Assembly: GCA_038150265.1 (NCBI GenBank)
Contig: JAYOTF010000003.1
Coordinates: 64,001-128,000 of the forward strand
Source: Deltaproteobacteria bacterium
GTDB lineage: Bacteria > SAR324 > NAC60-12
Direction of reading: 5' to 3'
DNA length: 64,000 nucleotides
Below are positions 1 to 64,000 of the stretch, piece after piece. The notes under the pieces were generated by a model. That model searched no databases, was not told the DNA's origin, and saw nothing but the letters and a program-made list of their open reading frames with translations. A program made the position numbers and the translations under genes. How positions within the stretch are numbered: position 1 is the stretch's first letter; every line of letters starts with the position of its first letter.

Positions 1-1150
1 CAGCAAGGGATTGCGAGAACGCGCGGGACTGCACCAGGTACTGCAGCTCGGCTTCCATGATCTTCTGACCAAAGTCGCCGGTGTCCGGAAAGCGGTGCAT
101 CATGCTGGTCATCCACCACGAAAAGCGGACCATCTTCCACACCCGCGCCAGCGCTCGTGTGGAGTAAGCATCCAGGCCGGCCTCAGAGCGTTCGGCGTAA
201 TGCTCCCGCAGCCCCTGAAACAGGTAATGGACGTCGCTCGCCGCCAGGTTCAGGCCCTTGGCTCCAGTCGGCGGAACGATGTGGGCCGCATCGCCACAGA
301 GGAACAGGCGCTGAAACCGCATGGGCTCTGCCACAAACGACCGCAGCGGTGCAATCGACCGCTCAATGGGCGCTCCAACGGTCACCTGTTCCGCCACTTC
401 CGGAGGCAGGCGGTAACGGAGTTCGTCCCAAAACCGGTCATCCGGCCAATCGGCCACCGTGTCCTCCAGTGAGCACTGCACGTAGTACCGCACCCGTGTC
501 CGGGACCGCATGGAGCACAGGGCAAACCCGCGCGGGTGGTTGGCGTAGATCAACTCCTCGGAAACCGGAGGGACGTCGGCCAGGATGCCCATCCAGCCAA
601 ACGGGTACACCCGCTCATATTCCGTCAGCGCCGTCTTTGGAACCGATTGGCGGCTCACTCCGTGGAAGCCGTCACATCCGGCAATGAAGTCGCAGTCCAC
701 CCGGTGCGTGACCCCGTCTTTCTCGTAGGTCACCCAGGGGTGGTTCCCGTCAAAGTCGTAAGGCTGCACCTGCTCGGCCTCATACACAATGGGCGCCCCG
801 CTGGCGGCACGAGCGTTCATGAGGTCCTTGGTGACCTCAGTCTGCCCGTACACCATCACGGTCTTGCCGCCGCTGAGTTCCTTGAGGTCAATGCGGTGCC
901 GCTCCCCGGCAAACGCGAGCTCAATGCCGTCATGCACCAGCCCCTCAGCGTGCATCCGGTCACCGCACTCGGCCTGGTCCAGCAGGTCCACCGTTCCTTG
1001 CTCCAGCACCCCGGCCCGGATGCGACTCAGGACGTACTCCTGCGAGCGCTGCTCCAAAATGAGGGTGTCAATGCCAGCCTGGTGCAGCAGTTGTCCCAGC
1101 AAGAGCCCGGAGGGTCCGGAGCCTATGATTACAACCTGAACACGTGTCAT
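1..1150 (-). CDS. pobA: 4-hydroxybenzoate 3-monooxygenase (partial, 3' end runs off the window)
   Basis: Not in the ORF track. Manual translation from ATG at 1150: [22 protein letters not shown]...[20 protein letters not shown]...[14 protein letters not shown]...YERVYPFGW...[21 protein letters not shown], which carries the PHBH fingerprints. Confidence 0.95.
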
Positions 1151-1213
1151 CCGGTCCTGTTTGCTTGAGGGGGTGGCGGAGTGGAAAGGCGCCAGCCGCA
1201 ACGGGCGCCGCGT

Positions 1214-2242
1214 TTAGAGCAAAGCCGTCTCTTCCGGAAACCCGAACATCAGGTTCATGTTCTGCAGCGCTTGTCCGGAGGCGCCCTTCACCAGGTTGTC
1301 GATGCTGGTCAGGACCACCCAGTTGCGGCACGACTCATCGTGGCTGAGGCCAATGGCACAGCGGTTCGAGTTCACGCAGGTTTTGAGGTCCGGAAGCCGC
1401 CCCTCGGGAAGCAGCTGCACAAATCGGTTTTCAGCCTCAACCTTCTGAAACTGCGCCCAGACCTTTTCCGGATCCTTCGGCCGCGAGAAGCGCAGGTAGA
1501 TGGTGGAAAGGATGCCCCGATTGACCGGAAGCAGGTGGGGCGTGAAGATCACCTCGCCCAACTCTTCCGATCGGAACGGGCTGAGGTCTTCCAGGTACTG
1601 CTGGATTTCCGGCTGGTGCTGGTGCCCAAAGACCTTGTACGCCTTGAAGTTCTCATTCACCTCCACGTAGTTCGTGGCGTCGTCTTCCACCCGGCCTCCG
1701 GCCCCGGTGACTCCGGATTTGGCGTCAATGATGGGAGGACGATCCAGGCGCCCCAGCAGCTCGCCAAAGGGCAGGATTCCCAGCAAGGCCCCCGTCGGGT
1801 AGCACCCCGGGTTGGCAATCAGCCGCGCCGACTCAATGCGCTCTCGGAAGAACTCCGGCAGCCCAAACACCGCCTCCTTCAGCAGTTCCGGAGAGCTGTG
1901 TTCAAGCTGGTAGAAGCGCGCAAAGCGTTCCGGATCCCGGAGCCGGTACACGCCTGAAAGGTCGATCACCTTCACGCCTTGCTCCAGCAGGGCGGGCACC
2001 CGCTCCAGGCTGGCCTTGTTCGGAACCGCCAGGAACACGACGTCGCATCCGGAAGCATCAGCGTCATTGGGCTGAAACACCTCCTGACACAGCGGCAGGT
2101 GCGGAAAGGCCTCAGACACCGTGCGGCCTTCATACTTGGTGGACGTCGCCAGGACCACCTGGGCGAAGGGGTGACGTTGCAGGCGGTCCAGCAGTTCGAG
2201 CCCGGAGAGCCCGGCGGCGCCGATGATTCCAACACGGATCAT
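1214..2242 (-). CDS. argC: N-acetyl-gamma-glutamyl-phosphate reductase
   Basis: GAAGLSG Rossmann start, IANPGCYPT active-site motif, DAKSGVTGAG, DNLVKGASGQALQNMN. Confidence 0.96.
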   Translation of the reverse strand: MIRVGIIGAAGLSGLELLDRLQRHPFAQVVLATSTKYEGRTVSEAFPHLPLCQEVFQPNDADASGCDVVFLAVPNKASLERVPALLEQGVKVIDLSGVYRLRDPERFARFYQLEHSSPELLKEAVFGLPEFFRERIESARLIANPGCYPTGALLGILPFGELLGRLDRPPIIDAKSGVTGAGGRVEDDATNYVEVNENFKAYKVFGHQHQPEIQQYLEDLSPFRSEELGEVIFTPHLLPVNRGILSTIYLRFSRPKDPEKVWAQFQKVEAENRFVQLLPEGRLPDLKTCVNSNRCAIGLSHDESCRNWVVLTSIDNLVKGASGQALQNMNLMFGFPEETALL

Positions 2243-2586
2243 GAGTTCAGTACCTCTTGATAAAGATCTGCATTAAATCCCACAATGAAGTCGGAGCCCA
2301 CCCGCCACGTGGGCGCACGCAGGTTCCCGCTGGGCCCAATGACGTCGGCCAGGATCGCCTCCTGATCATCCGTCGCCGGGTTCCAGCTGCGGGTTTTCTT
2401 GCCTTTGGCGGTGTAAATCGTCCGGGCGTCCTTCATCAGCTCCCATGCGGCAGCCGCATCGTACCGGACCTTGTTGGCGCTCACGCGCTCCTGATCGTGA
2501 ATCTGGTGTGCGTCAAGAAACTCTTGCGCTCGCTTGCAGCTCGTTCAGCCGGGGCGAAAGTAGCCCCAATCCAGGGTCTGGGTCAT
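2239..2586 (-). CDS. ArsC-like / thioredoxin-fold selenoprotein (UxxC; Sec at codon 14, TGA at 2545-2547)
   Basis: From ATG 2586: MTQTLDWGYFRPG-TGA-TSCKRAQEFLDAHQI...ERVSANK..., in frame with ORF 2239..2484 (GPSGNLRAPTWRVG..IVGFN, an ArsC/Spx-like C-terminus). TGA occupies the first Cys position of the CxxC motif and a hairpin follows it. Confidence 0.85.
2510..2529 (-). promoter_or_regulatory. Putative bacterial SECIS element of the ArsC-like gene
   Basis: mRNA GCG-CAAGA-GUU-UCUUG-A-CGC: stem-loop with a G-starting loop 23 nt after the UGA. Confidence 0.6.
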
Positions 2587-2625
2587 GGCGGTTTGTCGGG
2601 AAAGGGTTGTTGGGTCAAAAGGGTG

Positions 2626-63638: not shown

Positions 63639-63784
63639 GGGCGACTCTTGGCAAACAGGCAGAGCAGGAAGCAACCTGAAGTGGCTGGTTCAGGAGAAAA
63701 CCGGACCTCATCATAACCGCACCGTCGGTTTGGAGCAATGCGGAAACCCCACTCTTCCGAGCGCGTTTTTTCGGGAAAAGCGGC

Positions 63785-63798
63785 TTGACTTCAGTCAA
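63785..63798. promoter_or_regulatory. Palindromic operator candidate TTGAC-N4-GTCAA (FNR/CRP-family-like)
   Basis: TTGACTTCAGTCAA between divergent genes. Confidence 0.45.
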
Positions 63799-63927
63799 CG
63801 ACCTGCCAAGTTACAGTGTTATTCAAAATGGTCCCGGTTTCCTCCTTCTTCCTCCCGCCAGCCTGGAGGGCCCGGAGACTCCTCTCCTGCAGTGCAACAC
63901 CACCTTTTATCCGTCGGAGGCCCCTGG

Positions 63928-64000
63928 ATGCAAATACGTTGGAGCATGGTTTTGGTTGGACTGTTCCTGGGGCTGTCTTCCTGTGCCTCAGGGTGGAATG
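63928..64000 (+). CDS. Putative lipoprotein (partial, runs off the window)
   Basis: GGAGG RBS, then MQIRWSMVLVGLFLGLSSCASGWN with an LSSC lipobox. Confidence 0.55.
   Translation, partial: MQIRWSMVLVGLFLGLSSCASGWN

Follow-up and report, generated by a model that had tools for sequence, protein, structure and literature searches.

The palindrome TCCGGA is hyper-abundant and helically phased in a genome of the SAR324 lineage and in some of its relatives

The six-base palindrome TCCGGA was found to be hyper-abundant in a 64,000-nucleotide stretch of the genome of an uncultured Deltaproteobacteria bacterium (SAR324, NAC60-12; assembly GCA_038150265.1, contig JAYOTF010000003.1, positions 64,001 to 128,000), called the window throughout, and in the whole draft genome that holds it. 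Until now, highly iterated palindromes (HIPs) have been a puzzle of cyanobacteria, where they are linked to cognate methyltransferases. The present case comes from an unrelated lineage and adds to this puzzle that no methyltransferase tracking the word was found and that dipeptide use is altered by the word. The copies of TCCGGA also display a fine structure unreported for the cyanobacterial HIP1, namely an exclusion zone of ~35 bp and a 10.5-bp phasing with a genus-dependent phase. Such a spacing structure is the signature expected of a physical reader of double-stranded DNA.

Results

Abundance of TCCGGA in the window and in the genome

The genome holding the window (G000, in which the window is C3:64001-128000) is a draft of 3,393,712 bases in 87 contigs, 97.8% complete and with 1.6% contamination. 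The window contains 197 copies of TCCGGA (3.1 per kb), a number reached by none of 100 dinucleotide-preserving shuffles of the same DNA (mean 24.28, standard deviation 5.98, largest 48). An earlier note, made from the letters of the window alone, had put about 40 copies in the first 10 kb against about 3 expected, at a GC content near 62%. Exactly 40 copies lie in bases 1-10000 with a shuffle expectation of ~3.8, and the GC content is 0.58-0.64 per 4-kb block of the window and 0.612 genome-wide. The 197 strandless sites of the window (1..64000) comprise 175 within 50 called genes and 22 in the 8,167 bases outside them (2.7 per kb). The carriers are ordinary housekeeping genes, e.g., infB, smc, pnp and gltA. 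The closest named relative of gltA, from a metagenome-assembled genome labelled Myxococcales, shares 68% identity with it.

The whole genome holds 9,711 copies, one per 350 bp, and TCCGGA is its most frequent hexamer (19,422 both-strand counts; the runner-up, with 10,913, overlaps TCCGGA). The observed/expected ratios were 8.69, 7.57, 3.95, 2.39 and 1.22 for Markov orders 0 to 4, respectively. Order 3 served as the control for CCGG, which by itself is 1.37x over-represented; TCC, GGA and TCCG are also mildly over-represented (1.38-1.62x). Order 4 gives a circular control, in that 19,422 of the 36,035 TCCGG pentamers (54%) are the hexamer itself, and the low value of 1.22x is therefore no refutation. 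Statistically, one end of the palindrome depends on the other, since A follows TCCGG in 53.9% of cases vs 36.5% (16,613/45,539) after [ACG]CCGG. The sister palindromes ACCGGT, GCCGGC and CCCGGG, with which a comparison had been proposed, each reach only 0.67-0.68x in G000. The 7- and 8-mers around TCCGGA contribute nothing (maximal-order ratios 0.94-1.16), and the unit is exactly the 6-bp palindrome. The transition neighbours gave model-dependent values (TCTGGA 1.41-2.58x, TTCGGA 0.76-1.34x). In 80 named loci of unrelated bacteria, the median observed/expected ratio of TCCGGA was 0.95. Altogether, the over-abundance of TCCGGA was confirmed.

Two classes of known motifs were considered and rejected. 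A dispersed repeat of the repetitive extragenic palindrome or miniature inverted-repeat transposable element type, or a longer hidden consensus, is at variance with the lack of any contribution of 8-mers and with the intragenic location of 8,664 of the 9,711 sites. A polar motif of the Chi or KOPS (FtsK-orienting polar sequences) type is defined by strand skew, and TCCGGA cannot carry polarity because it is its own reverse complement. As a separate observation, palindromes containing CTAG are nearly absent from G000 (TCTAGA and GCTAGC 0.06x, CCTAGG and ACTAGT 0.03x), and CATATG is likewise at 0.03x.

TCCGGA in genes and in spacers

Genes of G000 were called by a crude procedure of our own (2,705 genes, 87% coding, GC content at third codon positions 76%). 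By these calls, 8,664 sites fall within genes (2.93 per kb) and 1,037 outside (2.37 per kb). Genic copies occupy several reading frames, as the earlier note had noticed for the window: genome-wide, 2,039 are read as TCC-GGA (Ser-Gly), 2,520 as nTC-CGG-A ([FLIV]-Arg) and 4,114 as nnT-CCG-GA (x-Pro-Glu/Asp). Twenty synonymous shuffles, in which codons were permuted inside each gene so that each protein and the per-gene codon usage were kept, recovered 24% of the sites (2,122 +/- 46, largest 2,212, vs 8,673 observed), and each of the three frames exceeded the shuffles by 3.3-5x. In clean spacers (879 gaps between two confidently called genes, 117 kb in total), 274 sites were present, an 8.1x excess, which was the same for tandem (8.3), convergent (7.9) and divergent (8.2) neighbours. 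The equal excess in clean spacers and in all three frames argues that translation, promoters and terminators are not its cause. No single codon-pair preference accounts for it either, in agreement with the note. Control for shorter words and dicodon usage, on which the note had made its claim depend, left the excess in place, at 2.39x for Markov order 3 and well above the synonymous shuffles. A Markov or codon by-product was rejected on the strength of the shuffles, the frames and the spacers.

A position was termed permissible if synonymous changes alone, with the protein kept, could place TCCGGA there. In G000, 8,673 of the 21,446 permissible positions are filled (40.4%; by frame 0.33, 0.39 and 0.47), and in the window 175 of 393 (44.5%). 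The highly conserved gene infB (IF-2; 45891..48575, minus strand) has 10 of its 22 permissible positions filled, and smc (13474..17031, plus strand) 11 of 20. Occupancy is uniform across genes, as its per-gene standard deviation of 0.148 is close to the binomial 0.143, and site density drops below 1.8 per kb in only two contigs of at least 8 kb. For Ser-Gly, independent codon use would predict 8.0% TCCGGA; the glycine codon is GGA in 65.8% of cases following a TCC codon vs 23.3% elsewhere. Proteins, too, bear the mark of the pressure for TCCGGA. Ser-Gly dipeptides stand at 1.38-1.49x in the enriched genomes G000, G002, G051 and G005 and in a sample of genus g11, and at 0.87x in a small sample (23,000 residues) of non-enriched relatives; Gly-Ser is at ~1.0 in enriched and non-enriched genomes alike.

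The earlier note also described a hairpin with TCCGGA in both arms after gltA, and this structure is real. It lies 3' of the citrate synthase gene gltA (51514-52839), on the plus strand, with a stem at 52865..52902 whose arms pair mutually on folding and carry the sites at 52866-52871 and 52896-52901. Its folding energy is -26 kcal/mol (z -3.45), and one of 200 shuffles folds as well. The hairpin is atypical, as inverted-repeat arms hold only two of the 33 close intergenic TCCGGA pairs genome-wide. The same count rules out terminator hairpins as the origin of the intergenic copies.

Helical phasing and short-range exclusion

The distances between occupied sites in G000 are periodic at 10.5 bp (10.46-10.50 bp), with a relative amplitude of 0.087. 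When occupancy was shuffled within each class of permissible sites (200 runs), the amplitude was 0.015 +/- 0.007 and at most 0.037, and the permissible sites themselves have a 10.5-bp amplitude of 0.010. The amplitude was 0.164 for distances of 12-75 bp, fell in successive ranges to 0.077, 0.067, 0.049 and, at 301-450 bp, 0.032, and the phasing vanished past ~450-600 bp. Peaks of the raw distances stand at 9, 19, 31, 42, 52, 62, 73, 84, 94 and 105 bp. The three codon-offset classes behave alike (amplitudes 0.123, 0.109 and 0.123; phases 27°, 29° and 14°). At the same period, unrelated abundant hexamers of G000 reach 0.003-0.03, AA/TT 0.002 and half-sites 0.011. Among near-cognates only CCCGGA/TCCGGG is cross-phased (0.034), the others giving 0.007-0.037 and none exceeding ~1.6x its own noise. 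A general genomic 10-11-bp periodicity was rejected on the values for AA/TT and the other hexamers. An origin in the periodicity of alpha-helical proteins (~10.8 nt) was rejected on the amplitude of the permissible sites, the agreement of the codon-offset classes and the opposite phases seen in two genera (below).

At shorter range, TCCGGA copies avoid one another below ~35 bp. The ratio of occupied to permissible pairs, expected to be 0.163, was 0.076 at 12-20 bp, 0.130 at 21-35 bp, 0.152 at 36-50 bp and ~0.18 at 51-100 bp.

Phasing and site turnover in relatives

Phasing was also analyzed in partial samples of G002 (440 kb), G001 (760 kb) and G051 (793 kb), relatives that are not independent samples. 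In G002, a member of the same genus with a fourfold-site identity to G000 of 0.525, the period was 10.5 bp and the amplitude 0.181, and the phase, at 26°, matched that of G000. This amplitude was reached by none of 500 Poisson and 300 thinning nulls, and it exceeds the 95% point, though not the maximum, of an all-period null. In G051, a genome of genus g19 with 2.30 sites per kb (7.6x), the period was 10.4-10.5 bp, the amplitude 0.151-0.155 and the phase ~175°; none of the 500 and 300 nulls reached the amplitude, which lies above the maximum of the all-period null. The raw distance peaks of G051 stand at 9, 27, 37.5, 47.5, 58, 67.5, 88.5 and 101.5 bp. Were proteins the source, orthologues would show a single phase in the two genera, and hence the phasing is a property of the DNA, not of the proteins. 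G001, again of the same genus as G000, showed a 5.2-bp harmonic of 0.132 with a phase of 118°, reached by none of 400 all-period nulls. The exclusion below 35 bp was found in G002 and G051 as well.

Turnover of sites was followed in 199 G000-G002 orthologue pairs (median amino-acid identity 90%) at 1,158 permissible positions with identical amino acids. Both genomes had 272 of these positions filled, G000 alone 209 and G002 alone 114, so that a position was filled in G002 with a probability of 0.565 where filled in G000 and of 0.168 where unfilled. Under a neutral turnover model, in which a state is unchanged or redrawn from stationary frequencies and which was fitted on other synonymous states, the conservation of sites at synonymous positions was predicted at 0.449 vs 0.547 observed (n=258). 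For the more distant G001 (79 orthologues, n=46), the values were 0.384 predicted and 0.391 observed. Since sites turn over while the pattern is kept in relatives, density and phase appear to be maintained, and individual positions not.

Distribution across the family and its sister family

The trait was measured as the TCCGGA count divided by the count of a control word, AGGCCT, in 45 genomes of the family (f1) and eight of the sister family (f2). The ratio runs from ~1 to 32 over the 45 genomes, and the word is lineage-specific, as the earlier note had supposed. The window's genus, g1 (2.2-2.9 sites per kb), has ratios of 3.9-5.9. The range is 1.6-32 in g11 (18 genomes, the three lowest of which are only 51-57% complete), 14-30 in g19, 3.0-8.4 in g4 and 4.5-4.7 in g6, and the ratio is 3.8 in g3 and 2.6 in g10. 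All nine genomes of g2 fall at 0.84-1.2, and g5, g8 and g9 at ~1. The sister family is mostly at 2 or below, with a minimum of 0.13. High GC is not the cause of the excess, as TCCGGA is 6-8x enriched and the top palindrome in the 42%-GC genome G012; in other relatives with a similar GC content it is at background. No alternate palindromes were seen in non-enriched relatives, in samples of only 5-40 kb. Site avoidance was found only in some relatives of f2, with TCCGGA vs AGGCCT counts of 133 vs 987 (G017), 40 vs 182 (G015) and 37 vs 151 (G020).

Some further features of these genomes were noted. Genus g1 has ~60% GC (G000 0.612, G002 0.600, G001 0.608) and sampled stretches of the other family genera 36-57%, a large compositional shift inside one family. 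In G051, TCCGGA is at 7.6x while ACCGGT is at 0.28x, GCCGGC at 0.21x, CCCGGG at 0.17x and AGGCCT at 0.28x. The small f2 genomes G015 and G020 (1.6-1.7 Mb, single contigs) and G017 have 16-18 matches to an N6/N4 methyltransferase query.

Search for a writer or reader of the word

Family searches of G000 found no C5 methyltransferase (PF00145), no Vsr (PF03852), no type I/IIG N6 methylase (PF02384), and neither SeqA nor MutH (PF03925 and PF02976 searches). No D12-class Dam orthologue was found in G000, the only match being a partial one of 27 bits inside the C51 enzyme described below. The fold of the CCGG restriction family PF07832 was not found either, in a search that matched no control genome and proves little. 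In the survey of the 45 family genomes, the strongly enriched genera g1, g19 and g11 yielded no C5 methyltransferase of full length: one 50-aa fragment came from g1, nothing from the three g19 genomes, and fragments from three of the 18 g11 genomes, the other 15 having none. C5 methyltransferases are present in several weakly or non-enriched genera.

The orphan methyltransferase for which the earlier note proposed to look has two candidates in G000, both of the N6/N4 type. The C45 enzyme is a beta-class N6/N4 DNA methyltransferase of 258 aa with an SPPY motif, encoded beside a retron-type reverse transcriptase. Within the locus G000:C45:1404-5096, the reverse transcriptase gene (local 35-1444; NF038233 retron_St85_RT, 200 bits) overlaps by four bases with the methyltransferase gene (local 1441-2217), and a 311-aa open reading frame with no family match follows (local 2224-3159), all on the plus strand. 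This gene order hints at a possible retron system whose partner is the methyltransferase. The C45 methyltransferase occurs at full length only in G000 and G001. The C51 enzyme, an alpha-class N6/N4-type methyltransferase with an SPPY motif, is cut by the end of contig C51 in G000 (local 2-1387, plus strand) and has 730 aa in G002 (G002:C16:51917-56044, local 451-2643, plus strand). It consists of ~350 aa of Arg/Asp/Glu/Pro-rich repeats (PRREDRPRYEDR-like) followed by an alpha-class methyltransferase domain with the motifs DPFMGGGT ... SPPYPG ... GKWEH, and is a candidate DNA or RNA methyltransferase. The enzyme is conserved throughout the order, also in genomes where TCCGGA is not enriched or is depleted; the SPPY motif is unaltered in g2, g5, g9 and f2 but degenerate (APPA, RPPL, HPPL) in the enriched g3, g4 and g6. 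The nearest solved relatives of the two enzymes include DNA cytosine-N4 methyltransferases (E 5e-11 for C45; 1.7e-5 over a short stretch for C51). Neither enzyme tracks the trait, and neither is supported as the cognate enzyme. A cognate methyltransferase wherever the word is abundant, as expected for HIPs, was not found among the families searched, although an enzyme that these searches do not recognise may be present.

ComEC is present in G000, in 33 of the 45 family genomes and in all 19 of high quality, and no genus, whether enriched or not, lacks it. It does not discriminate, because it occurs in all high-quality genomes with or without the trait. None of the candidate families searched over the 45 genomes (C5 methyltransferase, ComEC, HU/IHF, histone fold) tracks the trait. 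Two side observations were made. G006 (12 Mb, 750 contigs) has eight histone-fold matches in duplicated pairs on C7 and C488, and these contigs look like foreign, possibly eukaryotic, DNA in the bin. The window encodes an ArsC-family (seleno)protein at 2239-2589 on the minus strand (NF041106, 76.8 bits), and reading a TGA (~2545-2547) as selenocysteine extends the frame upstream to a Met and yields a GUTSC redox motif.

Discussion

The earlier note had taken TCCGGA for a highly iterated palindrome created or kept by a lineage-specific mechanism such as methylation-directed repair, chromosome organisation or DNA uptake. The word does behave as such a palindrome, and the mechanisms fared unequally. 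Chromosome organisation gained support from the 10.5-bp phasing and the short-range exclusion. Methylation-directed repair received none from the gene content, as far as sequence searches can tell, with no C5 enzyme, Vsr, SeqA or MutH and two candidate enzymes that do not track the trait. ComEC, being in every high-quality genome regardless of the trait, gives DNA uptake neither support nor exclusion.

The pair correlation combines a hard core of ~35 bp, an oscillation at the B-DNA repeat, a decay over ~450 bp and a phase of 0°, 180° or both, depending on the lineage. A site-by-site mutational or codon effect predicts independent sites. The spacing pattern suggests that the word is read as double-stranded DNA by a symmetric factor whose neighbouring copies interact, directly or through looping or bending. 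We tentatively favour, at somewhat below an even chance, a DNA-binding reader whose density of sites and register are kept by weak selection or by a conversion bias linked to it. TCCGGA would then be the genome-wide recognition word of an abundant, twofold-symmetric DNA-binding factor, which may or may not also modify it. A uniform and fairly strong pressure, either weak selection or biased conversion tied to the same factor, would hold the word to a given density throughout coding and non-coding DNA, and would act on density and rotational setting instead of single positions. Neighbouring occupied sites would exclude each other within ~35 bp, the putative footprint, and neighbours with coplanar dyad axes would be favoured, in a parallel setting for G000 and G002, an antiparallel one for G051 and both settings for G001. 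Abundance, uniformity, exclusion, phasing, turnover and phylogenetic distribution are observations; what we infer is a protein as the reader and selection or conversion as the upkeep.

Several points weigh against this reading. No reader protein was found among the candidates searched: HU/IHF numbers ~3 copies whether or not a genus is enriched, and among the 45 genomes only G006 has the histone fold. Six bases are few for specific binding, and each site would confer only a minute advantage. An ad hoc change of geometry is needed to account for a phase that varies among lineages and is mixed in G001, whose fundamental reaches just 0.080 (p 0.02) beside the 5.2-bp harmonic of 0.132. Pairs with a non-coding site are only suggestive of phasing (0.090 vs a null of 0.039 +/- 0.021). 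In a third strongly enriched genus, g11, a 205-kb sample with just 87 pairs gave an amplitude of 0.035 vs a null of 0.096. The compared genomes are draft assemblies from uncultured organisms, and genes were called only crudely. The pattern may also stem from a mutational or conversion drive in which selection plays no part.

Among the rivals, a drive linked to methylation is the published model for HIP1, the closest known phenomenon (Elhai, PMC4390886). An orphan methyltransferase would mark TCCGGA, a methyl-directed or very-short-patch-like repair would convert near-cognates, and a SeqA-like reader of hemimethylated sites could supply the helical phasing. G000 does encode the two SPPY methyltransferases related to DNA cytosine-N4 enzymes, but this 97.8%-complete genome lacks matches to C5 methyltransferase, Vsr, PF02384 methylase, SeqA and MutH in the searches made. 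C5 enzymes are absent or fragmentary in the strongly enriched genera and present in several weakly or non-enriched ones, the C45 enzyme is limited to G000 and G001, and the C51 enzyme is order-wide and degenerate in the enriched g3, g4 and g6. A site-by-site methylation drive by itself predicts neither exclusion nor phasing, and we regard this explanation as rather unlikely. Alternatively, TCCGGA could be a tag for uptake or recombination of self DNA, as is now proposed for HIP1, with a molecular drive spreading the word. One site per 350 bp in all frames and spacers, turnover at constant density and the dipeptide imprint speak for such a tag, these being typical of uptake sequences, and so does ComEC in G000. 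ComEC is just as constant in the non-enriched genera, however, a 6-bp palindrome would set self DNA apart only ~8-fold, and per-gene occupancy is uniform, with no bias to gene classes. Phasing, exclusion zone and lineage-specific phase are foreign to the classical uptake model, which leaves the tag a distinctly unlikely explanation.

The spacing itself might reflect intrinsic DNA mechanics without a dedicated protein, a bendable or bent TCCGGA tuning curvature or supercoil handling by a rotational arrangement that is coherent in g1 and alternating in g19. The period of 10.46-10.50 bp is the helical repeat of relaxed B-DNA, and successive dyads lie in one plane at exactly the favoured settings of 0° and 180°, both found in G001. 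Mechanics offers no reason, however, why one hexamer only should be used or why near-cognates should lack phase, it leaves the exclusion zone unexplained, and sister genera with opposite arrangements would have to meet contrary mechanical needs; we consider it improbable. We assign an equally low probability to a two-site machine, a single repair or conversion enzyme that writes and reads TCCGGA. Such an enzyme would have to stay bound to one TCCGGA as it acts on a near-cognate that a fixed rotational setting brings within reach, with no action within ~35 bp and a reach fading by ~450 bp. If this were true, TCCGGA would be a non-mobile 'selfish word' seeding new copies beside old ones; its hyper-abundance, uniform 40% occupancy, exclusion and phasing would be explained without host selection, and an altered enzyme geometry would explain the phase flip between genera. 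That the excess simply follows from base composition, from shorter words or from the usage of codons and dicodons is hardly tenable. The order-4 ratio of only 1.22 and the mild excess of TCC, GGA and TCCG would suit it, but that ratio is circular, the synonymous shuffles recover 24% of the sites, the frames and spacers are all enriched, the 42%-GC G012 is enriched and unrelated loci stand at 0.95.

Returning to the DNA-binding reader, the spacing structure turns a puzzle of abundance into one testable through a binding protein, a modification of the site and a protein geometry for each genus. The contrasts among genera, from 1.0 in the nine g2 genomes up to 32 in g11, are a natural experiment for phylogenetic profiling, an approach that has been applied to HIP1 with a phylogeny-aware regression (PMC13756078).

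Comparison with known systems

A literature search, largely outside subscription journals, turned up no earlier description of an excess of TCCGGA or of hyper-abundant palindromes with helical phasing. The matches listed for 'highly iterated palindrome' were all cyanobacterial or general, none of the matches listed dealt with the helical periodicity of over-represented palindromes, and no literature was found linking SAR324 with palindromes or TCCGGA.

TCCGGA is, as the earlier note states, the recognition site of BspEI/AccIII, and also that of Kpn2I. Restriction normally leads to site avoidance; a restriction-modification target would share the same six bases, but G000 shows an 8.7-fold excess instead. 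Very-short-patch repair in E. coli shapes words related to CCWGG, and the likeness lies in a repair bias that is tied to a methylated palindrome and shifts oligonucleotide frequencies genome-wide. Unlike in E. coli, no Vsr or C5 enzyme was found here, the effect is several-fold larger, and the transition neighbours of TCCGGA are not clearly depleted. The Dam sites (GATC) of gamma-proteobacteria are read by SeqA and MutH, and SeqA reads pairs of GATC on the same face. GATC thus offers the parallel of a short palindrome with a dimeric reader preferring two sites on one face of the helix, but it is not hyper-abundant like TCCGGA, and the searches found no SeqA, MutH or D12-class Dam orthologue in G000.

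Uptake sequences, i.e., the uptake signal sequences (USS) of Pasteurellaceae and the DNA uptake sequences (DUS) of Neisseria, are non-palindromic words of 9-12 bases. They resemble TCCGGA in a density of approximately one copy per kb or more, in their presence in all frames and sometimes as pairs in terminator hairpins, and in their peptide imprint, and the density of uptake words is upheld by a population-level drive. TCCGGA differs from these asymmetric words in being a 6-bp palindrome without a contribution of the flanks. To our knowledge, helical phasing of uptake sequences has not been described.

The closest parallel is with the cyanobacterial HIP1 (GCGATCGC) and 'alternate HIPs' (Elhai 2015, PMC4390886; Xu et al. 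2018, PMC5861425), two articles that, supplements aside, mention neither TCCGGA nor the term 'helical'. Genome-wide excess, occurrence in any frame and in non-coding DNA, and sharing within a lineage with exceptional members, by which HIPs are recognized, are all found for TCCGGA. Both words are short GC-rich palindromes, hyper-abundant lineage-wide in genes and spacers and lacking from some relatives, and in both selection apparently acts on the distribution and not on single sites. TCCGGA is a hexamer outside cyanobacteria, whereas HIP1 is a cyanobacterial octamer, and unlike HIP1 it has no cognate methyltransferase that tracks it. The published periodicity of HIP1 (PMC5861425) is 18-94 kb, whereas that of TCCGGA is helical, at 10.5 bp, and is accompanied by an exclusion zone.

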